From the IMG/VR virus record IMGVR_UViG_3300029717_000016, positions 1-47,742 of that record: DNA of 47,742 nt; one strand, 5' to 3'. A program made the position numbers and the translations under genes. This DNA comes from a virus. Shown in pieces: positions 5,342 through 34,631 of the stretch. Positions within the stretch are counted from its first letter, which is position 1. Each line of letters begins with the position of its first letter. The notes beneath the pieces were generated by a model, which did no database searches, was not told the origin of the DNA, and was given only the letters and a program-made list of their open reading frames with translations.

Positions 5342-6442
5342 CTAGCAACTTTTATTTTTCATTTCCAATTCCGTTGCCAATTTGCGCTTTTTCATCGCTT
5401 CGGTGGTGAAGTAGTCGCAGAAGTCGCTGGAGCGTTTGGCAATATCTTTCTGGGCGAGGTGCGTGTAGATATTGTGCATGGTAGACAAGTCACTCCACCC
5501 TCCGATTTCGGCGGCGATCATTTCCGGAATTTGCAAGTGGTAGGCAAGAGATGCAAAGCTGTGGCGCAGCCCATGCAGATCAACCACGGTGATTCCAGCG
5601 GCGGCGCAGACTTTGCCTAAATTATTGTAGATGGTTTCTGCGCTTGCCTTTACCACGTTTCCGGTCTTCTGCTCCTGCGCTTTCAGCGCCTCTAGAAGCG
5701 GCGGAATGATAGGCACAGAGCGGCGGGACTTCGCCGTTTTGTTTTGTGGCTTCTGCACAAGCCCAGCCGCCCCCATGACGATTGCGCCGCGAACGTGCAT
5801 CACCTTGTTTTCCAAATCTACGTTTGCCCAGTCCATGGCGATCATTTCCGAGCGGCGCAGGGAGGAAAGGCACATCAGATACGGGATTTCAAATCGGTGG
5901 CCTTTTATAGCTTCCACAAACTTATCTATCTCGTCCGGCGTGAGGTATGCCCGTTCGTTGTGTTCCGGGGGATACAGCATCACCTCTGGGCGCGGAGCAC
6001 CGGCGGCGACGATGCAGGCGGAAAAGAACATCCACCCATTTTTGATATACTTCGGGGATTTCCCGGCCTTGTGTTCCTGCCTGATAGCGGCCTGCCATTG
6101 GTCATTGGAGACTGTGAAAATGTTCCGCTTCATCATGCCTAGCAGCATATTCCGCTTGAACTTCTCGTACCCTGCAATGGTGGATGGGGAAAGGAATCCC
6201 TCTTTTGATGCAATGTAGCTTTTGACGGCTTCTTCCAGCGTGATGTCTTTCCCGTCCTTCTTCTCGCGGACTTCCACAAGGCCGTTTTTCAAGGCGAGAT
6301 ATTCGGCCACGCATTCATCATATGTATCTTTCGTAATCGATACGCGGCGATTCTCTATCAATACACGTGTGTGCCACGCCCCAGAGGGGAGCTGCTTAAT
6401 TTTTGGGAGCCTGATTTCCGGCTCATTCTTTCTTTTTGCCAT
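5342..6442 (-). CDS. int: Tyrosine integrase (phage integrase family)
   Basis: LRRSEMIAMDW (R), HGLRHSFAS (HxxR), GWSDLSTMHNIYTH (Tyr). Start moved to M21 (ATG 6442, RBS aggggga) because the longer ORF runs through a terminator. Confidence 0.92.
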   Translation of the reverse strand: MAKRKNEPEIRLPKIKQLPSGAWHTRVLIENRRVSITKDTYDECVAEYLALKNGLVEVREKKDGKDITLEEAVKSYIASKEGFLSPSTIAGYEKFKRNMLLGMMKRNIFTVSNDQWQAAIRQEHKAGKSPKYIKNGWMFFSACIVAAGAPRPEVMLYPPEHNERAYLTPDEIDKFVEAIKGHRFEIPYLMCLSSLRRSEMIAMDWANVDLENKVMHVRGAIVMGAAGLVQKPQNKTAKSRRSVPIIPPLLEALKAQEQKTGNVVKASAETIYNNLGKVCAAAGITVVDLHGLRHSFASLAYHLQIPEMIAAEIGGWSDLSTMHNIYTHLAQKDIAKRSSDFCDYFTTEAMKKRKLATELEMKNKSC

Positions 6443-6469
6443 AAGGAATCCCCCTTTACATGCGGTTAG

Positions 6470-6500
6470 AAAAAATGGCAGACCGCCGAAACGGTCTGCC
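6470..6500 (-). terminator. Rho-independent terminator between toxin gene and integrase
   Basis: Minus strand: ggcagaccg tttcgg cggtctgcc followed by atttttt. Confidence 0.75.
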
Positions 6501-6573
6501 ACTGTTTTTGAGAACTAGGTGGGGCGACGCTCCCACATCTCCTAACAAGGGCGACGGCTGCCCGTTCCGTCTT

Positions 6574-7053
6574 CTAGTCCTTTCTGCTTTTGAGCAACGC
6601 GGCCTTGGTTTCGATAATATTTAACGGACTATGTAGAACCCCACGTTCAACCATGTTCAAGTAGGCAAGCGCTTTTACACGGATGTTTTTCTTTATATTT
6701 TTGTTTTCCAAAACATAAGGCACATTGTTGATATTGTATGGGCGTAGTACATGTTCCGGGAGGACGGGGAACATATCGCAGATAATAAAAGCCCTGTCTT
6801 TTCCGTATATCGGCGCTATGAGGTAATGCACGCAGTTTCCGGAGCCGTGCCGCCTCTCACTTTCATATATCAGCCGCTTGTATTTATCTACGTTGGTACT
6901 CATTGGAACCATCCATAGGACACCGGATTTGTCCGCCATAGCGTAGTAGTGGGGGCGGCTCTCCTGCTTATTCTTCATATAGCGGTTGTTCCCGTATTTT
7001 TCAAAGAAAGCATCACGGATTATGTATATTCCGGAGTCCTGTATCTCTGTCAT
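6574..7053 (-). CDS. Type III TA endoribonuclease-like toxin (ToxN/AbiQ/CptN-like)
   Basis: 159 aa. IYIIRDAFFEKY...ESRPHYYAMADKSGVLWMVPMST...AFIICDMFPVLPE has the layout of ToxN/AbiQ-type toxins. Preceded by repeat RNA plus terminator. Confidence 0.65.
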   Translation of the reverse strand: MTEIQDSGIYIIRDAFFEKYGNNRYMKNKQESRPHYYAMADKSGVLWMVPMSTNVDKYKRLIYESERRHGSGNCVHYLIAPIYGKDRAFIICDMFPVLPEHVLRPYNINNVPYVLENKNIKKNIRVKALAYLNMVERGVLHSPLNIIETKAALLKSRKD

Positions 7054-8435: not shown

Positions 8436-8442
8436 GAAAATC

Positions 8443-8542
8443 AATCGAGCTTTCTTTTGATTATGCTGCTCGCGCTCTACGAGCAAATCATCAATTGAGC
8501 TTTCTTTTTCCCGCAGAAGCCTCGCTCTAAGGCTTCATCATC
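8443..8542 (-). ncRNA. Candidate type III antitoxin RNA: 2 x 50-nt tandem repeats with covarying hairpin
   Basis: Units 8542-8493 and 8492-8443. Shared flanks and 7-nt loop tagagcg. Stems GAAGCCT/AGGCTTC versus TTGCTCG/CGAGCAG differ in a compensatory way. Confidence 0.7.
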
Positions 8543-8562: not shown

Positions 8563-8591
8563 ATTATAAAGCCCGAATATTCAGTTGTCAA
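8563..8591 (-). promoter_or_regulatory. Consensus sigma-70-type promoter for repeat RNA/toxin-2
   Basis: Minus strand TTGACA-N17-TATAAT. Confidence 0.7.
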
Positions 8592-22833: not shown

Positions 22834-23827
22834 TAAATGCTTATCGACTTAACTCAGCACGCTACAAGATGTAGCGACAGCTCTGGTCAAGCGCAGGAAT
22901 ATCTGATTGCCGGTCATGCGGCGGTTGAAACGGAAACAGTACTCGTCCAGATATGCCTGGAGCTTGGTGCACCTTCCGTGATATGTTCCCTGAAGGAATG
23001 CTTTCAGATTACTGATTGCCTTGTGTACCCAATGCAGATCATCTGTTTCGTATTTCTTCGTGTTCAGTTCCACACCTTCCAGATTCAGGTAGCTTCTGTA
23101 ACCGTCGCATTCTACCTTCGTTTTAGGCACAAAATACTGGTCGATGATTTCCTGCAAAGTCTTTCCCTGTACGTTATCTACTACCTTCATCCTGGCAAAC
23201 AGTGGTGCACTGTTTGCGGTTTTGGATACGGCCACCACAATCTTGGCCTTATCCGTACCACGACCTCGTTTGCCGTTATGGGAAGGTCCGCCAACATAGC
23301 CGTCATCCAACTCTACAATGCCGGAAAGCAAGTATTTTTCGTCTCTTTGACCCATAGCGGTACGAATTCGATCCAATAGGTGCCACGCGGAGTCATAACA
23401 GATCCCCAGTGTGCGGCTTAGCTGAACAGCGGAAATCCCTCTTTTGTCCGTTGCGCACAGATAGATCGCCCAGAACCAGATTGTCAGAGGCAAATGGGTA
23501 CGGTGCATAACCGTCCCTGCGGTAACAGAAGTCTGGTGCCGGCAGGAACGGCACTGATAAATGTTGCGGCCATGAACGGGATAGTATTCCACACAGCCGC
23601 ACTTAGGGCAGACAAACCCATTGGGAAAGCGCAGGCGGAATAGTTCTGCTCTGCAAGCGTCCTCAGTATTGTAGCGACGGCGAAAATCTTTGAAAGTAAT
23701 CTCAGCTGTACGTGCCATGATGATGTTCCCCTTTTTGCTTTTGGGAACATTGTAGCATCCTATCTGTCCAATAAACCGGACTTTTTCAAGATATTGTGGC
23801 TTGCTGTGTTAAGTCGATAAGCATTTA
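22834..23827 (-). mobile_element. IS1595-family insertion sequence
   Basis: Terminal inverted repeats aaatgcttatcgacttaac (22835-22853) and gttaagtcgataagcattt (23808-23826), extending to ~27 bp with 2 mismatches. AAGAT on both flanks. Single transposase ORF. Confidence 0.85.
22849..23718 (-). CDS. IS1595-family transposase
   Basis: 289 aa. N-terminal zinc ribbon FPNGFVCPKCG...YQCRSCRHQTSVTAGTVMH. DDE region VELDDGYVGG... Confidence 0.85.
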   Translation of the reverse strand: MARTAEITFKDFRRRYNTEDACRAELFRLRFPNGFVCPKCGCVEYYPVHGRNIYQCRSCRHQTSVTAGTVMHRTHLPLTIWFWAIYLCATDKRGISAVQLSRTLGICYDSAWHLLDRIRTAMGQRDEKYLLSGIVELDDGYVGGPSHNGKRGRGTDKAKIVVAVSKTANSAPLFARMKVVDNVQGKTLQEIIDQYFVPKTKVECDGYRSYLNLEGVELNTKKYETDDLHWVHKAISNLKAFLQGTYHGRCTKLQAYLDEYCFRFNRRMTGNQIFLRLTRAVATSCSVLS

Positions 23828-23935: not shown

Positions 23936-24484
23936 TTGGCGGAAAGCAATAAACTCAAAAAGAAGCCTTATCAAGTTCCTGATCTGGAACCAGGAGACAA
24001 TACCAAGTACATTAACCATTCCATGACTATCATGAAATGGAAAACACCGGATATGAATGATCTGGAAGCTGTAGAGAAAAGATGTTTCGATTATTTTGAC
24101 CTTTGTGCTAAGAATGATATGAAACCTACCTTTGCAGGATTCGCTTTGGCTTTCGGCGTAGATAGGATGACTATGTGGAGATGGTGCAATAATCAGCCTA
24201 GAAGCAGGGATTTAAGCGACTCTGTGCGTGACACTATCAAAAAAGCGCGGGATTTAATCAACGCTCAGATGGAGGATTTCATGCAAAATGGCAAGATTAA
24301 CCCCGTTGCCGGAATTTTTTTGATGAAAAACAATATGAACTACACCGACCAGCAGGAAGTGGTCTTAAAGCCGGATAATCCGCTTGGAGAGCGGGCAGAC
24401 CCGGAGAAGCTGCGGCAGAAGTATCTGGAAGATGTTCGCGGTAGCGGTGCGACTATCATTGACGCGGAGGGTGGAACGGAATGA
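23936..24484 (+). CDS. terS: Terminase small subunit
   Basis: 182 aa. TTG start with AAAGGAGG RBS. PTFAGFALAFGVDRMTMWRW...AGIFLMKNNMNYTDQ. Confidence 0.75.
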   Translation: MAESNKLKKKPYQVPDLEPGDNTKYINHSMTIMKWKTPDMNDLEAVEKRCFDYFDLCAKNDMKPTFAGFALAFGVDRMTMWRWCNNQPRSRDLSDSVRDTIKKARDLINAQMEDFMQNGKINPVAGIFLMKNNMNYTDQQEVVLKPDNPLGERADPEKLRQKYLEDVRGSGATIIDAEGGTE

Positions 24485-25297: not shown

Positions 25298-25366
25298 TTA
25301 TTTGCTGATCTTCAGCAGTTCCGCTAGCACAAGCAGCGGGAAAAACAGGATTGCAAGTAGTGCCAC
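25298..25366 (-). CDS. 22-aa hydrophobic LFP-motif peptide (copy 1)
   Basis: GTG start. VALLAILFFPLLVLAELLKISK. Last gene of the minus-strand operon. Confidence 0.45.
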   Translation of the reverse strand: MALLAILFFPLLVLAELLKISK

Positions 25367-25689: not shown

Positions 25690-25914
25690 TTAAAACAAGA
25701 TAAACAGATTGGAGCAACGCCCGATAATGGCGTATAACTGCCCGGTTTCGGTATCTTCGACCAATCCGCCGTTAATGCCGTAAACCCCGGAGGAATAGCC
25801 CACTTTTTCAAGCCTGCGGAGCGTGTAAAGGTTCTCGGCGGGCTTGTTGGTGTAATCCTCAGCCACTCCGAGCCGCACAAGCTCCCGGAGCGCTTTCAAC
25901 GTGTATTTTTTCAT
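25690..25914 (-). CDS. Hypothetical protein
   Basis: 74 aa from ATG 25914 (GGAGG RBS). Confidence 0.55.
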   Translation of the reverse strand: MKKYTLKALRELVRLGVAEDYTNKPAENLYTLRRLEKVGYSSGVYGINGGLVEDTETGQLYAIIGRCSNLFILF

Positions 25915-26308
25915 TTGGGCTGCACCTCCCCCCGGTATATGCATTGACAACACGGCTTGCGGCCTGATACAAGGCTCTTGCCTGAGTGTCCAGCCATTCT
26001 TCCCGGTTGTTCGGCCTGCGCTCGCCGTTGCGGGTTTTCTTGAGCTCGGACGGGCAACACAACCGCTCGGCGATGTCGGCGTTGTAAATCAAGCTGGAGC
26101 CGCCCCAGCTGTATTGCTCCCAGTCCTGCGCCCCGTTCAGCATCCATTCCCGGCACTCTTTCTCGGATTCAGGGTCCCGGCCTTCGTATTCCGCCCGTTC
26201 TTTCAGTTCTTCTACCAGCTCCAGGGCGTAGGCATTGACACCCTTGCCCCATGCGCTGCGGTCTTTCCGGGTTTCCAGCTCGGCGGTGATTTGATCATAG
26301 ATTGCCAT
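25859..26308 (-). CDS. Acidic hypothetical protein
   Basis: 149 aa from ATG 26308 (AAGGAGG RBS). The 3' end overlaps the next gene by 55 nt, so a frameshift or alternative end is possible. Confidence 0.6.
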   Translation of the reverse strand: MAIYDQITAELETRKDRSAWGKGVNAYALELVEELKERAEYEGRDPESEKECREWMLNGAQDWEQYSWGGSSLIYNADIAERLCCPSELKKTRNGERRPNNREEWLDTQARALYQAASRVVNAYTGGRCSPNEKIHVESAPGACAARSG

Positions 26309-26425
26309 TTTTATTTCCTCCTTGTAATTCTGCGGAGGCCGTGCTATAATAGTAGCGCCCCCTTGTGTGGTGCGCTCCCGTTGGTCTTGGTAGGATTGCG
26401 GGGGCGCTTTTTTGTTTACGTGAGT

Positions 26426-26454
26426 ATTATACACTAATTATTTCAAGTTGTCAA
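26426..26454 (-). promoter_or_regulatory. Consensus promoter of the minus-strand accessory operon
   Basis: Minus strand TTGACA-N17-TATAAT, followed by a ~110-nt leader with a long-range stem agcgccccc/gggggcgct. Confidence 0.7.
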
Positions 26455-26910
26455 TAGGAAATCAAAAATTATTTTTAGTGTAGTTATGGCGATATAGTTT
26501 GAATTTTGCAGTGTTTTATACGCGCACATAATGAAAGAAATGTCTATAGTATAAGCACATGCGCCTAGTCCACGATATGAGGACATGAAAACACCGCAAA
26601 ACGCGGAGAAATCAGAACATTTTCAATAAATATTGCATTTTGACGTATGCGTTTATAGCCATGAACGCAACCAAATATTTATTTTGTTGCGTTCACTTTA
26701 CCGTTCATGTCGATACGGTCAAAATGTGTTTGCATAGCGCGGACAGTTTGCATTTCCTGGATCTTGTGCCGTCCGGCACCGTCCAGCGGTTCCGGCTGCT
26801 GCTGGATAGCACCGGGGGCGGGGGATATGGCCGGCCTGATTCGGTGGGGGTTAGCCCCACAAGTACCCGCAAAAATAAAAAGCCCCCTCTCCTTCTCGAA
26901 AAATCCCGAA

Positions 26911-26940
26911 AAAGAAAAAAGACCTCCAAACGGAAGTCTT
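26911..26940 (-). terminator. Minus-strand rho-independent terminator
   Basis: Minus strand: aagacttcc gttt ggaggtctt ttttcttt. Confidence 0.6.
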
Positions 26941-26989
26941 GAAAGATTGGGAATGTGGGAAAAATCTAAAAAAGTTATTAAAAAATTAT

Positions 26990-27018
26990 TTGACAACGCT
27001 TCTGTAAAGGTCTATAAT
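26990..27018 (+). promoter_or_regulatory. Consensus promoter of a small RNA
   Basis: TTGACA-N17-TATAAT. Confidence 0.7.
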
Positions 27019-27024
27019 AATAAC

Positions 27025-27170
27025 ACAGGGAACACCTGCTGGTAACAGATGTCCCCTGCGGTGGGAACCCAGACGGTTGCCACGAGCATACAAGTTAGTA
27101 GGTCGAGAGCTTAGCGCTCAAACAACCGTGAGCCGTTCTGCTGTGAACAGACGGCTCACTTCTTTCTGTT
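27025..27170 (+). ncRNA. Candidate ~145-nt sRNA (possible type I antitoxin)
   Basis: Consensus promoter and strong terminator (27128-27170; 12-bp stem plus T-run). No RBS-preceded ORF. 5' 13-bp imperfect hairpin. Confidence 0.55.
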
Positions 27171-27242
27171 ATGGAACTTGTCCCATGCTTGGACGAGAAT
27201 CCAGCAGATAGACACAATCCAGAAAACATCTTGAAGAGTTAT
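27156..27242 (-). CDS. Candidate type I toxin-like hydrophobic peptide (non-canonical ATA start)
   Basis: GGAGGTG RBS 7 nt upstream of ATA. Frame reads (I)TLQDVFWIVSICWILVQAWDKFHNRKK. 3' end overlaps the sRNA terminator. Confidence 0.3.
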   Translation of the reverse strand: MTLQDVFWIVSICWILVQAWDKFHNRKK

Positions 27243-27412
27243 GTATGGTCACCTCCATGAGAAATAAATTTCCCGCGAGGGCTATACACACGCCTCCATT
27301 CCGCACTCGCGGGATGACAGGCAACCGCCTTTTTAACCGTACACCGTCTACAAAGGAGATAGGCTATGGCAAGCCAGGAAACTCGACGCGGACGGTGGGT
27401 TCCACGGAATTT

Positions 27413-27441
27413 ATTATACACAGATTGTCGAATAATGTCAA
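27413..27441 (-). promoter_or_regulatory. Consensus promoter facing the sRNA (candidate toxin mRNA promoter)
   Basis: Minus strand TTGACA-N17-TATAAT. ~160-nt leader with a 9-10 bp inverted repeat (27272-27316). Confidence 0.65.
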
Positions 27442-27595
27442 CTTAATGAGAGCCATCCTTTGCGGGGGTTCTCTTATTTTTTATGCTGCACAAAATCAAC
27501 ATTTCAAAAATCGCGCGAAAAACAAAAAGGCAAGAACCAACTATATAAAAGCTCCCTCCGGTCGTCACATCACCAATTTTATTTTGGCAATCCTA

Positions 27596-27624
27596 TTGAC
27601 AATCAAATATATCTAGTGTATATT
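27596..27624 (+). promoter_or_regulatory. Promoter of the HTH-lipoprotein operon
   Basis: TTGACA-N17-TATATT. Confidence 0.65.
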
Positions 27625-27648
27625 AAAGGCACACAGGAGGTGTTCCCG

Positions 27649-27891
27649 ATGCAGATAAGCAAAGCGATTCGTCAGGTAATGAAGGAGAAAAGCGTGTCTC
27701 TGCTCACTATGGCAAAAGCGATTGGAAAACAACGGGGGAATGACATAAGCGCTAGACTGACAAACCCCAACATGTCCTTCGACAAGGCAGTGGAAATGCT
27801 AGACGTTCTAGGCTATGAGGTAGTCATTCAGGAGCGAAAGCCCGGTGCTAGAAGGGCAGACCAGATCGTTATCGACCAGAAGGAAAGTTGA
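27649..27891 (+). CDS. Small XRE-like HTH protein
   Basis: 80 aa from ATG 27649 (AGGAGG RBS). SLLTMAKAIGKQRGNDISARL...LGYEVVI. Confidence 0.65.
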   Translation: MQISKAIRQVMKEKSVSLLTMAKAIGKQRGNDISARLTNPNMSFDKAVEMLDVLGYEVVIQERKPGARRADQIVIDQKES

Positions 27892-27904
27892 AGGAGGAAT
27901 AATC

Positions 27905-28319: not shown

Positions 28320-28424
28320 ATGTGGGTAGTTTTAATCATTCTGTTTCCGGCATTCGTCATTGCAGAACTCTTGAAGGGCTACGACGGGAAAGGCGCAAGA
28401 GGACGTAAAGGAAGGAGACATTGA
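28320..28424 (+). CDS. 34-aa LFP-motif peptide (copy 2)
   Basis: GAGGAGGG RBS. MWVVLIILFPAFVIAELLKGYDGKGARGRKGRRH. Confidence 0.5.
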   Translation: MWVVLIILFPAFVIAELLKGYDGKGARGRKGRRH

Positions 28425-28788: not shown

Positions 28789-28857
28789 ATGGAATTTCTC
28801 TTGATTCTCCTGTTTCCCATATTCGTGCTGATAGAGATCATGAAGCATAAAAAGTAA
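28789..28857 (+). CDS. 22-aa LFP-motif peptide (copy 3)
   Basis: The previous TAA stop (28786-28788) is immediately followed by ATG 28789. MEFLLILLFPIFVLIEIMKHKK. Confidence 0.5.
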   Translation: MEFLLILLFPIFVLIEIMKHKK

Positions 28858-29291: not shown

Positions 29292-30947
29292 ATGGATTAT
29301 GGGAAATTGTCAACCTCCATTCTGGGGGCTATCGAGAACAGACCGGGCGATATCGGGGCATATGAAGACCTGTTTTCCCTGTGCCAGGCATGGGCTGAGA
29401 CTGATTTCACGGCGGCGCATCGGGCGAATAAACAATTGAAGGATATGTGCGACCGAATGATGGATAAAGTTCCCATGTCTCAGGTGGAGGGATTCTACAG
29501 CCTTTGGCGGCGGGGGCTATTGTTTGAGGCTCCATATGACTTTGACAGCTATCTTACCTATATTGAATTGGACAGGAAGCTAGAAAAACGGTTTTATCAG
29601 CCGAGAAAGCACTACTTAAAACGATATGTGGACGCATACCAGAAGATTTTGGACGGGGAATTGGACTTTTTATCGATTTCCATGCCTAAGCGCGCTGGGA
29701 AATCCCAGTTGGGAATCAATTTCACAAATATGCTTTCCGGGAAATCCCCTGAGAAGGCGACACTTATGGAAGGAACCGGTGACGATTTGGTCAATTCTTT
29801 CTACAAGGGCTGTCTGGAATATCTTCAAACACCGAGCGAATACCTGTTCTACGACGTTTTCCCGGAAAGCAAGCTGGTTCAGACGAATGCAGATACGAAG
29901 ACGTTGAATCTCATGAACAAATCCAGATTTCCAACAATCATGTGTCGCTCCATTGACGCACGACAGGTCGGCTTATCCGAAGCTACAAACCTGTTATACC
30001 TTGATGACTGTGTCGAAGGGCGGGAAGAGGCAAAGAACCGGCAGCGTCTTGACGAGAAGTGGGAGGTAATTTCTGGTGACATTATCGGCCGTGCCATCGA
30101 AGGAACGCCCATTGTTATCTGCGGCACACGGTATTCCCTGTATGACCCAATTGGACGGTTACAAGAGGAAATGAAGAAACAGAACAAACGCTGTGAGATC
30201 ATTGAAACCCCTGCCCTTGACCTTGTCACGGACGAAAGCAATTTTGAGTATATCCGAGACGGGAAAAAAGTGTTCACAACACAGTATTTCCGAGATCAGC
30301 GGGATATGCTGTCCGCGGAACAATTTGAATCCGAGTTTCAGCAGCAGCCATTTGAAGCAAAGGGGCTTCTTTTCCCAGAAGGCAATTTGAACCGGTTTTT
30401 TGAACTCCCCGTTGACAAGGAGCCGGATACCATCATTGCCGCCTGTGATACAGCAGACAAGGGAGCAGACTACTGCGCCATGCCGATTGCGGCGGTCTAT
30501 GGGCAGGAAGTGTACATTATCGACGTTGTTTTTGATGATTCTACCCCAGAAGTCACAAAACCAGAAGTCGCAAAGGCTTTGATTAACAACAAGGTCGTAT
30601 CTGCCATGTTTGAAAGCAACAATGCTGGCAGTTACTTTGCAAGGGACGTGCAGGATATTCTCAAAAGCAGAGAATATATGTGTAGCATTCGGACAAAACG
30701 AACGATCAGTAACAAACAGACCCGAATTGAGTTCGCGTCAGACAATATCCTGAAACATTTCTATTTCAAGCATCCGTCCACATATGCAAGGAACAGCCAG
30801 TATGCAGAGTTCATGCGACAGGTCACAACATATACCCGTTCCGGGAAAGTGGCTCATGATGACGGGGCAGATTCGCTCAGCCTACTTGAAAACGAACTCC
30901 GGGGCTTGGTTGGAACGAAAGTTGAAGTGTTTGCGAGACCGTTCTAA
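29292..30947 (+). CDS. terL: Terminase large subunit
   Basis: 551 aa. Walker A-like SMPKRAGKS, Walker B-like LLYLDDC, CGTRYS, C-terminal nuclease region with conserved acidic residues. Confidence 0.88.
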   Translation: MDYGKLSTSILGAIENRPGDIGAYEDLFSLCQAWAETDFTAAHRANKQLKDMCDRMMDKVPMSQVEGFYSLWRRGLLFEAPYDFDSYLTYIELDRKLEKRFYQPRKHYLKRYVDAYQKILDGELDFLSISMPKRAGKSQLGINFTNMLSGKSPEKATLMEGTGDDLVNSFYKGCLEYLQTPSEYLFYDVFPESKLVQTNADTKTLNLMNKSRFPTIMCRSIDARQVGLSEATNLLYLDDCVEGREEAKNRQRLDEKWEVISGDIIGRAIEGTPIVICGTRYSLYDPIGRLQEEMKKQNKRCEIIETPALDLVTDESNFEYIRDGKKVFTTQYFRDQRDMLSAEQFESEFQQQPFEAKGLLFPEGNLNRFFELPVDKEPDTIIAACDTADKGADYCAMPIAAVYGQEVYIIDVVFDDSTPEVTKPEVAKALINNKVVSAMFESNNAGSYFARDVQDILKSREYMCSIRTKRTISNKQTRIEFASDNILKHFYFKHPSTYARNSQYAEFMRQVTTYTRSGKVAHDDGADSLSLLENELRGLVGTKVEVFARPF

Positions 30948-34137: not shown

Positions 34138-34211
34138 TGCGGCATAGCCAAAAGGTAAGGCACATGGTTTTGACCCATGTAATGGAAGTTCGATTCTTTC
34201 TGCCGCAACCA
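34138..34211 (+). tRNA. tRNA-Gln (anticodon UUG)
   Basis: Manual cloverleaf: TGCGGCA ta GCC aaaaggtaa GGC a CATGG ttTTGac CCATG taat GGAAG ttcgatt CTTTC TGCCGCA a CCA. U1-A72 and the D-arm match bacterial tRNA-Gln. Confidence 0.85.
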
Positions 34212-34555: not shown

Positions 34556-34631
34556 GGGTTGTTAGCTCAGTTGGTAGAGCAGCGGACTGTTAATCCGCAG
34601 GTCACAGGATCGAAGCCTGTACAGCCCTCCA
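34556..34631 (+). tRNA. tRNA-Asn (anticodon GUU)
   Basis: GGGTTGT ta GCTC agttggta GAGC a GCGGA ctGTTaa TCCGC aggtc ACAGG atcgaag CCTGT ACAGCCC t CCA. Confidence 0.85.

Follow-up and report, generated by a model that had tools for sequence, protein, structure and literature searches.

A mobile, candidate type I toxin–antitoxin-like module of an undescribed family in gut phages and Clostridia

We analyzed a 47,742-nt viral DNA sequence (IMG/VR virus record IMGVR_UViG_3300029717_000016, positions 1 to 47,742; hereafter, the window), focusing on a unit at positions 26990–27441 in which two convergent promoters face a small RNA (sRNA) on the plus strand and a short hydrophobic peptide frame on the minus strand. 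This unit is probably a self-contained type I toxin–antitoxin (TA)-like module of an undescribed family, a reading that we favor because its promoters, coding signature, RNA structures, overlap geometry and mobility all agree. From the sequence, we infer its transcription, translation from AUA, toxicity, the antitoxin role of the sRNA and the biological role of the whole.

Relatives and promoters of the unit

Relatives were collected by several routes. The two neighboring proteins led to 108 related viral loci; diverged copies, down to ~70% identity, were retrieved from metagenome and viral contigs using degenerate patterns of the peptide frame and two invariant DNA words; and longer in-frame translations were aligned to reach distant peptide relatives. 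An nhmmer profile yielded 109 copies with 47 distinct sequences from viral and metagenome contigs. A scan of genome contigs returned only L127, a chance match without the module by blastn or nhmmer, and a blastn search of 26440–27650 against 50,697 GenBank phage records gave no match.

Homology in all alignments runs from the −35 box of the plus-strand promoter to the −35 box of the minus-strand promoter, delimiting a conserved unit of ~450 bp (26990–27441). Both promoters are present as given in the preliminary description of this DNA: TTGACA-N17-TATAAT at 26990–27018 on the plus strand, assigned to the sRNA, and the same arrangement at 27413–27441 on the minus strand (read 27441→27413), assigned to the peptide mRNA with a predicted transcription start site near 27405. 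Both are of the sigma-A type and match the consensus at 12 of 12 positions. Perfect TTGACA-N16–18-TATAAT promoters occur four times in the window, as compared to 0.01 expected from shuffled sequences. Both are retained in every complete copy while spacers and flanks diverge; the plus-strand promoter scores 9–12 of 12 at the equivalent place in every complete homolog, and the minus-strand promoter is kept in divergent homologs.

A conserved hydrophobic peptide frame with a probable nonstandard start codon

The minus strand contains a 28-codon hydrophobic open reading frame (ORF) at 27156–27242, encoding (I/fM)TLQDVFWIVSICWILVQAWDKFHNRKK, with ATA at 27242–27240 in the start position and a TGA stop codon at 27158–27156 that lies inside the terminator stem of the plus-strand RNA (frame translation ITLQDVFWIVSICWILVQAWDKFHNRKK). 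Upstream, at 27249–27256, is a Shine–Dalgarno (SD) sequence, GGAGGTGA, with eight consecutive matches to the Firmicute anti-SD; it is conserved in nearly all copies and reads GGGGGTG in the most divergent one (L154). The ATA follows GGAGG by 9 nt and GGAGGTG by 7 nt, so that frame, ribosome-binding site (RBS) and spacing are those originally reported; across the family, the SD lies 8–9 nt upstream of an ATA, ATC or ATG codon. An in-frame TGA (27251–27249) falls within the SD, and no ATG, GTG or TTG opens the peptide frame before the GTG at 27215.

Selection was assessed on 15 coding haplotypes, with the ratio of nonsynonymous to synonymous polymorphism (pN/pS) calculated pairwise for the 14 of equal length, all of which lack an ATG. 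In these relatives, where the preliminary description had suggested looking for it, the peptide frame proved conserved and is the sole frame open in all haplotypes, the other two gaining stop codons. Its pN/pS is 0.37 versus 1.11 and 0.87 in the other frames, with the greatest variation at third codon positions. Indels preserve the frame, L164 being 3 nt shorter and L154, the fifteenth haplotype, 6 nt longer, and replacements are conservative (for example, ITLQEIFWIVSICWILVQAWDKFHSKKK and ITLQNLFWIVSIIWIIIQVWDKFRDKKK). The distant subfamilies (L154 and P0036–P0040) keep the leader but differ in their hydrophobic helix, which ends in a K-rich tail; even there, the frame retains its hydrophobic core and K/R tail, in agreement with the helix and basic tail first noted for the window. 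The comparison indicates that the hydrophobic frame codes for a peptide under purifying selection. As a hydrophobic helix of fewer than 60 residues with a charged C terminus, this peptide has the size and composition usual for type I TA toxins.

The start position is occupied by ATA in nearly every copy, exceptions being L218 (ATC), L164 (ACG, following a 3-nt deletion) and L163 (GTG one codon downstream). Cluster P0030 (MTLQDVFWIVSIAWILYQAWDKFNNRKKK, 152 contigs) and the chromosomal copy L234 (GGGAGGCGGTACAT ATG ACA CTT CAA) carry ATG at exactly this codon, and the ATA is, therefore, taken to be the start position. The simplest reading is that AUA would serve as a weak start codon, because all 14 ATG-less haplotypes are still under purifying selection. 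The initial caveat that the correctly spaced codon is ATA is, thus, largely resolved by the ATG at the same codon in relatives, the GTG at the next codon in one copy and the purifying selection on ATA copies.

Other frames fared worse. Two alternative minus-strand frames starting with ATG (27258 and 27229), already considered poor in the preliminary description, were rejected, as they contain stop codons in homologs, have pN/pS values of ~1 and start at ATGs that are not conserved. On the plus strand, opposite the mRNA leader, an ORF of 26 codons at 27366–27446 (MASQETRRGRWVPRNLLYTDCRIMST) is preceded by a good RBS (AAAGGAGA) with a 6-nt spacer; it is probably no gene, as TAG replaces TGG in L011 and many homologs have a deletion of this region.

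A leader structure predicted to sequester the Shine–Dalgarno sequence

The predicted peptide mRNA starts with a 164-nt leader that folds better than shuffled sequence (z = −3.4). The consensus structure, obtained with RNAalifold from 13 diverse copies, consists of a 5′ domain closed by ACCCACCGUC / GACGGUG..ACGGUU, a middle helix and an SD hairpin, all on the minus strand. The 5′ domain (27331–27405), which begins with GUGGAACCCACCGUC, is built on a long-range helix of 27400–27391 with 27348–27331 around a hairpin of variable length, the enclosed tip being length-variable or deleted among homologs; leader helices 1 and 2 are 90–95% paired with two compensatory pairs. The SD hairpin (27243–27289, helix 4 in RNAalifold) comprises 17 pairs, is 94.5% paired and has four pairs changed on both sides. 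Within it, CCUC pairs with the GAGG of the SD (anti-SD CCCUC, 27280–27276) and the spacer is paired up to the base before the AUA. Over the whole structure of four helices, 94.7% of cells are paired, as compared to 39–50% when partners are slid by 1–3 columns, and many of the pairs are G-U, compatible with the minus strand only. This covariation-supported model predicts a leader hairpin that sequesters the SD.

The inverted repeat previously noticed in the leader (27272–27316) is present as an alternative 8-bp helix, CCCGCGAG / CUCGCGGG, between 27313–27306 and 27279–27272 on the minus strand. It is 99% paired and nearly invariant, and it excludes the SD hairpin, with which it competes for the CUC bases. 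In the window sequence, the two conformers are 1 kcal/mol apart (−57.8 versus −56.8), and the SD bases are mostly paired in the ensemble and in both conformers. Two-state leaders with a closed ribosome-binding site are common in type I toxin mRNAs (PMC5961336).

A predicted structured antisense RNA overlapping the 3′ end of the peptide mRNA

The candidate antitoxin is an sRNA of ~146 nt (27025–27172, plus strand), its ends being placed by promoter and terminator. The features of the ~145-nt transcript without an RBS-linked ORF that had been proposed for this strand were found, and the RNA has no conserved ORF; an ATG at 27049 lacks an RBS and is absent from homologs. The fold has a z score of −2.9 and contains three hairpins upstream of the terminator. 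Hairpin 1 (27026–27058) shows four compensatory pairs in RNAalifold and a conserved loop, CUGCUGGUAAC; it is absent from many family members, in which the −10 box directly precedes hairpin 2. Hairpin 2 (GUGGGAACCCAGACGGUUGCCAC; GUGGAAACCCAGACGGUUGCCAC; 27061–27083) is almost invariant, with one covarying and one U-G pair, and hairpin 3 (27105–27119) covaries at three or four positions, RNAalifold counting four compensatory pairs across these two. The U-G pairs of the sRNA fit the plus strand only. A search with Rfam cmscan at E ≤ 10 over 26400–27900 returned no TA-related family, and the locus itself had no Rfam match at this threshold or at gathering thresholds.

Transcription of the sRNA would end at a stem-loop shared by both strands (27128–27172). 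On the plus strand, arms at 27128–27140 and 27148–27159 form 12 bp with one bulged T, followed by a U-tract, TTCTTTCTGTTAT, at 27160–27172; this terminator, first described as a 12-bp stem with a T-run at 27128–27170, is invariant, as is CAGACGGCTCACTTCTTT of the stem-loop in all copies. On the minus strand, the stem contains the stop codon of the peptide, whose basic tail R-K-K (AGA AAG AAG) is encoded by the sequence complementary to the U-tract; this places the 3′ end of the peptide frame inside the sRNA terminator as the preliminary description had it. After the stem, the plus-strand U-tract is good and the minus-strand tail (GGUUGUUUG) a poor one.

The mRNA has a different probable terminator, a minus-strand hairpin at 27060–27024 with 17 pairs that is the complement of sRNA hairpin 1 and is followed by UUAUUAUUAU, overlapping the sRNA −10 box (whole feature 27014–27060). 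It is terminator-like, with the tail TTATTATTAT, and conserved across the family: every homolog, including those without hairpin 1, has a minus-strand hairpin followed by UUU(U)AUUAUA at the sRNA −10 box, the hairpin being the complement of hairpin 1 or, where that is absent, of hairpin 2. The sRNA −10 box and the A-rich stretch that follows give, on the opposite strand, the U-rich tail. Because hairpin and tail are conserved, the mRNA most likely ends at ~27015, and the whole sRNA probably lies within its 3′ untranslated region (UTR). A fully antisense position of the sRNA had been proposed on the basis of another terminator, at 26911–26940 on the minus strand. That element exists, with a 9-bp stem and a T-run, and lies in the mobile cassette described below; it is specific to the phage lineage and not aligned in divergent homologs, and the proposed geometry would hold with the hairpin at 27060–27024. 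A further terminator-like hairpin on the plus strand (27450–27485; GAGAGCC...GGTTCTC, then TTATTTTTT) was read from the sequence and not flagged by the scan, and it is likewise lineage-specific.

With a conserved promoter of its own and an overlap that makes it complementary to the peptide mRNA by construction, the predicted sRNA has the arrangement of a type I antitoxin. Its 5′ part was also compared with the leader and translation-initiation region using RNAduplex in 16 homologs, giving z scores of about +1.0 to −1.7 relative to shuffles and no conserved site. No significant additional sRNA–leader complementarity was found. Control through the 3′ overlap, by analogy to RatA, SR4 and the RCd RNAs discussed below, appears more likely than a 5′ mechanism of the Fst type.

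The two RNAs resemble each other near their 5′ ends. Both share GUGG(A/G)AACCCA near the start (27061–27071 on the plus strand and 27405–27395 on the minus strand) and a second motif, (A/G)GACGGUUGCC or AGGCGGUUGCC, at 27071–27081 (plus) and 27330–27320 (minus; inverted repeat I7). The common 5′ motif can be given as GUGGAAACCCA and later GACGGUUGCC, or as GUGGAAACCC/GGUUGCC, and where a subfamily lacks hairpin 1, the first 11 nt of the two transcripts would be identical. It could act as a 5′ stabilizer, as a docking site for a shared factor or in strand exchange between the 5′ hairpin of the sRNA and the 5′ end of the mRNA.

A separate match concerns the neighboring helix–turn–helix (HTH) gene. 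The 5′ arm of sRNA hairpin 1 (27028–27041, GGGAACACCUGCUG) is complementary at 13 of 14 positions to the RBS region of this gene (27634–27647, CAGGAGGUGUUCCC, then GAUG). Pairing between them was rejected as a candidate interaction, since the RBS varies in cassette-bearing relatives (GTGCTACC, GTGTTCCA and GGGGGTGCCACC) and the match is not maintained; it probably reflects an anti-SD-like sequence plus chance.

Mobility and genomic contexts

The unit lies in a larger segment, at ~26921–27527, that is present or absent among related viral loci; of the 76 loci with the HTH gene, 14 contain it. In L012 and L015, the site is cleanly empty, with a single copy of a ~25-nt A-rich sequence that, in the window, flanks the cassette on both sides. 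These flanking copies correspond to a direct repeat of ~22–25 nt (repeat D1; left copy 26899–26920, right copy 27506–27527; 77% identity, 607-nt spacing), bounding a 607-bp cassette in this phage lineage. Within the lineage, cassettes are 97.5–99.9% identical, with a 37-nt insertion in L023, as compared to 85–95% for the flanks.

None of the genes neighboring the unit in the window travels with divergent copies. Such copies occur at prophage ends between host lysS and an endolysin gene with small membrane proteins (L140, L164, L171 and L179), next to tail genes (L156 and L194) and in chromosomes beside feoB (L128), next to lplA plus a 2-hydroxyglutaryl-CoA dehydratase gene (L131), with a beta-eliminating lyase gene on one side and proBA on the other (L229) and in an integrated element adjacent to recG (L234). 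By this comparison, the unit appears to be a mobile presence/absence cassette found in at least six unrelated genomic contexts, and the family appears widespread in gut phages and Clostridia chromosomes.

Both genes flanking the cassette site have near-perfect promoters, at 26426–26454 on the minus strand (12/12, for a gene of 149 residues) and at 27596–27624 on the plus strand (11/12, for the HTH gene). The two promoter regions are alike as an inverted pair in many relatives, with short reciprocal matches between 26440–26481 and 27591–27633, which suggests that the cassette went into a divergent regulatory region between these genes.

Comparison with known systems

Entries for the family in nr are annotated as hypothetical proteins or carry a spurious DUF4808 label on over-extended ORFs, and full-text literature searches for the peptide strings gave no match. 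By these searches, the module would represent a previously undescribed family of the type I TA-like kind, the toxins of Clostridioides difficile being comparable by architecture alone.

The closest experimentally proven analogs are nonetheless the prophage and CRISPR-adjacent C. difficile pairs CD2517.1/RCd8, CD2907.1/RCd9, CD0956.2/RCd10, CD0977.1/RCd11 and others (PMC5961336, PMC7699646). In the prophage-borne pairs, transcripts converge, antitoxins of ~134 nt overlap mRNAs of ~300 nt by 131–134 nt, and the toxins have a sequestered RBS, an N-terminal region that is hydrophobic and a tail rich in Lys (PMC5961336, PMC7699646). The unit in the window shares with them convergent sigma-A-type promoters, a predicted mRNA of ~300–400 nt that combines a long 5′ UTR with sequestration of the RBS, a candidate antitoxin of ~130–150 nt, the full length of which overlaps the 3′ end of the mRNA, a hydrophobic helix with a Lys-rich tail behind it and residence in prophages of gut Clostridia. 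Unlike the C. difficile toxins, its peptide has 28 rather than 35–53 residues, is hydrophobic over nearly its whole length and starts with ATA instead of ATG. No sequence relationship to them was found, although no direct alignment with these toxins was made.

The module is also prophage-borne like the Bacillus subtilis systems txpA/RatA (skin), bsrG/SR4, bsrE/SR5 and yonT/SR6 (SPbeta and other prophage-like elements). These pairs are convergent with 3′ overlaps of ~100–120 nt and act through RNase III-mediated decay, and SR4 also changes the structure of the RBS. Their overlap and control are also discussed in PMC5961336. The arrangement proposed at the outset, with a convergent 3′ overlap in a prophage as in txpA/ratA and bsrG/SR4, was found here as a matter of architecture only, with an overlap of at least 45 nt and probably of the whole 146-nt sRNA. 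Differences from the B. subtilis systems include their toxins of 38–59 residues with ATG starts and a bidirectional terminator over the stop codon that is shared here and lacking there; searches of Rfam (E ≤ 10), Pfam and NCBIfam gave no sequence or covariance-model match to TxpA/RatA or BsrG/SR4.

With Fst / RNA I–RNA II (par of plasmid pAD1, Enterococcus faecalis), the unit has in common convergent RNAs sharing a bidirectional terminator stem-loop (stem 27128–27159 in both RNAs), a single-helix peptide of ~30 residues whose tail is charged and a 5′ structure in the toxin mRNA that blocks, or here is predicted to block, ribosome access. Fst control, however, requires the 5′ direct repeats DRa and DRb, complementary at the translation-initiation region; RNAduplex analysis of 16 homologs detected no significant complementarity of this kind. 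The Pfam Fst family and the corresponding Rfam family gave no match at E ≤ 10. The likeness originally drawn between the peptide and toxins of the Fst/TxpA/BsrG class does not extend to sequence membership in Pfam or Rfam, and the resemblance is architectural only.

Outside TA systems, the peptide aligns with the transmembrane (TM) segment and polar stretch of T7-type class II holins (Phage_holin_2_2, PHROG 920; T7 gp17.5), TLQDVFWIVSICWILVQAWDKFH versus SLNEWFYVAAIAYTVVQIGAKVV. PHROG 920 was matched at E = 3e-4 over 26 residues by three variants, hhalign gave E = 6e-4 with 28% probability, and Pfam Phage_holin_2_2 reached 14.5 bits (E = 0.03), below the family cutoff of 25.4. The alignment covers a single segment of a 67-residue protein. 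Unlike these holins, the peptide has its own promoter and an antisense RNA, and in the window its gene does not belong to a lysis cassette. The weak resemblance is suggestive of a holin-like action on the membrane.

Proposed mechanism and alternative explanations

In the model that we favor, the minus-strand promoter would produce an mRNA of ~390 nt with a 164-nt leader, the 28 codons of the Lys/Arg-tailed, single-helix membrane peptide and ~140 nt of 3′ UTR. The leader hairpin would hold the strong SD and the spacer, and translation would start at a weak, near-cognate AUA, so that basal synthesis of the peptide should be very low. From the plus-strand promoter, a 146-nt sRNA with three hairpins would be made, its complementarity to the mRNA being perfect from the last codons through the stop codon into the 3′ UTR. 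By analogy to RatA, SR4 and the C. difficile RCd RNAs, the duplex may lead to decay of the mRNA by RNase III, J or Y, lock it in the closed form or both. Once the sRNA is lost or outpaced, through loss of the element or a shut-off of transcription, the peptide would accumulate and cause holin-like membrane damage, by which the prophage may be stabilized or an infection aborted.

Several points weigh against this reading. Most copies, that of the window included, have ATA as the start codon, initiation at AUA in Escherichia coli has ~1% or less of the efficiency of AUG, and we know of no type I toxin with an AUA start. The pN/pS of 0.37 represents only moderate constraint and derives from 14 short, related haplotypes, and part of the conservation within the window lineage is due to recent spread, because the copies there are 97.5–99.9% identical. 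The two promoters are equally perfect, and an excess of antitoxin has no sign in the sequence. Pfam, NCBIfam, PADLOC and Rfam matched no known toxin or antitoxin family. Finally, expression, toxicity and antitoxin action are all predictions from the nucleotide sequence.

As an extension of the model, we tentatively and with considerable doubt consider a widespread promoter-to-promoter mobile cassette, in phages and chromosomes of human-gut Clostridia, whose toxin is normally AUA-initiated, with its output gated by start-codon fidelity (IF3 and initiator-tRNA selection). If true, start-codon gating beside an SD switch and an antisense RNA would constitute a layer of control not described for type I TA systems.

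It seems unlikely to us that the peptide is instead a real, nontoxic small membrane protein, serving in holin/antiholin-like lysis timing, superinfection exclusion or membrane sensing, with the sRNA as a cis-antisense tuner and without addiction or abortive logic. This idea draws on the weak match to a TM segment in holins of the T7 type (PHROG 920, E = 3e-4; Pfam, E = 0.03; hhalign, 6e-4), on the copy group adjoining a prophage lysis cassette with endolysin and small membrane proteins and on the other small membrane proteins in the island of the window. The holin scores, however, stay below the Pfam cutoff (14.5 versus 25.4 bits), with an hhalign probability of just 28%, and the peptide amounts to just one TM segment. 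The unit, moreover, is also found far from lysis genes and in nonphage chromosomal sites, and its repression at three levels, through a weak start, SD sequestration and an antisense RNA that overlaps in full, is a pattern typical of genes for harmful products.

We find it quite improbable that the RNAs themselves are the functional products, acting as an antisense pair, an insulator or a regulator in trans (for example, of the HTH gene), with the peptide frame in ATA copies as an untranslated relic of an ATG ancestor. ATA is not a standard start codon, but the 14 ATG-less haplotypes, at a pN/pS of 0.37, are free of stops in that frame alone and contain only in-frame indels, and the SD is at optimal spacing in every copy. 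Regulation of the HTH gene would be in line with the 13/14 complementarity between 27028–27041 and 27634–27647, yet this match is not maintained in cassette-bearing relatives and hairpin 1 is missing from many members. Terminators on both sides of the cassette and a nucleotide conservation of leader and sRNA that exceeds that of the peptide in distant subfamilies also accord with functional RNAs.

A chance cluster of promoter- and terminator-like motifs in an AT-rich intergenic spacer rich in promoter-like sites, as picked up by simple consensus scans, has a negligible probability and is effectively refuted by four perfect promoters against 0.01 expected and by conservation of the exact unit in 109 loci with covariation and a coding signature.

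Significance of the candidate module

Type I TA systems have been experimentally shown in few organisms, and annotation misses such modules, whose genes are tiny and, as here, lack a standard start codon. Two features make the family unusual: its conserved start is non-AUG (ATA), and the two RNAs carry an identical 5′ motif. The conserved ATA with natural ATG and GTG variants provides a clean natural test case for noncanonical initiation in Firmicutes. If the module works as proposed, it would be a candidate factor behind the maintenance of prophages or abortive infection in the gut microbiome and a compact counter-selection marker for gut anaerobes that are hard to engineer; type I TA systems of C. 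difficile have already been used for counter-selection (PMC7699646).

Phage setting and further features of the window

The window is a temperate siphovirus-like phage genome with an integrase gene (5342–6502, minus strand) and genes for an SPP1-type portal, capsid and tape measure. The exact terminase sequence of this phage occurs on 251 contigs, with 7,677 related proteins at E ≤ 1e-100, and several matching records carry the label human gut metagenome; it is a very common and abundant temperate phage of the human gut. Between terS (23936–24484) and terL (29292–30947), a 4.8-kb gap forms an accessory island with small genes on both strands, most without family assignment. The cassette site within it is a 1.2-kb stretch without long ORFs, flanked by the 149-residue gene (25859–26308, minus strand) and the 80-residue HTH gene (27649–27891, plus strand). 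PADLOC detected no defense-system signature in the island, its sole match being weak (E = 7e-4) and to the HTH protein.

Directly upstream of terS lies an IS1595-family transposase gene (DDE_Tnp_IS1595 with zinc ribbon; 22849–23718, minus strand). An insertion of ~1 kb occurs at 26856–26867 in L002, L006, L084, L077–L079, L014 and L016; BLAST segments at this site overlap by 12 nt on the window, which could represent a target duplication. The island further contains three paralogous tiny hydrophobic ORFs, at 28320–28424 (plus), 28789–28857 (plus) and 25298–25366 (minus), with the sequences MWVVLIILFPAFVIAELLKGYDGKG..., MEFLLILLFPIFVLIEIMKHKK and MALLAILFFPLLVLAELLKISK, respectively. They share the motif LxFPxxV(L/I)xE(L/I)(L/M)K, each is located directly 3′ of a larger accessory gene, and they may constitute a second family of small membrane peptides.

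Elsewhere in the window, a group of features lies at 8439–8490, 8563–8591 and 6511–6581, all on the minus strand: Rfam matches to 6A RNA (60.7 bits) and skipping-rope RNA (58.8 bits) and the fourth perfect TTGACA-N17-TATAAT promoter of the window. This promoter precedes the 6A RNA by ~70 nt on the strand of that RNA, suggesting that the 6A RNA is an independently transcribed sRNA. Two phage tRNA genes, for Gln (UUG; 34138–34211) and Asn (GUU; 34556–34631), lie on the plus strand between the portal and capsid genes.

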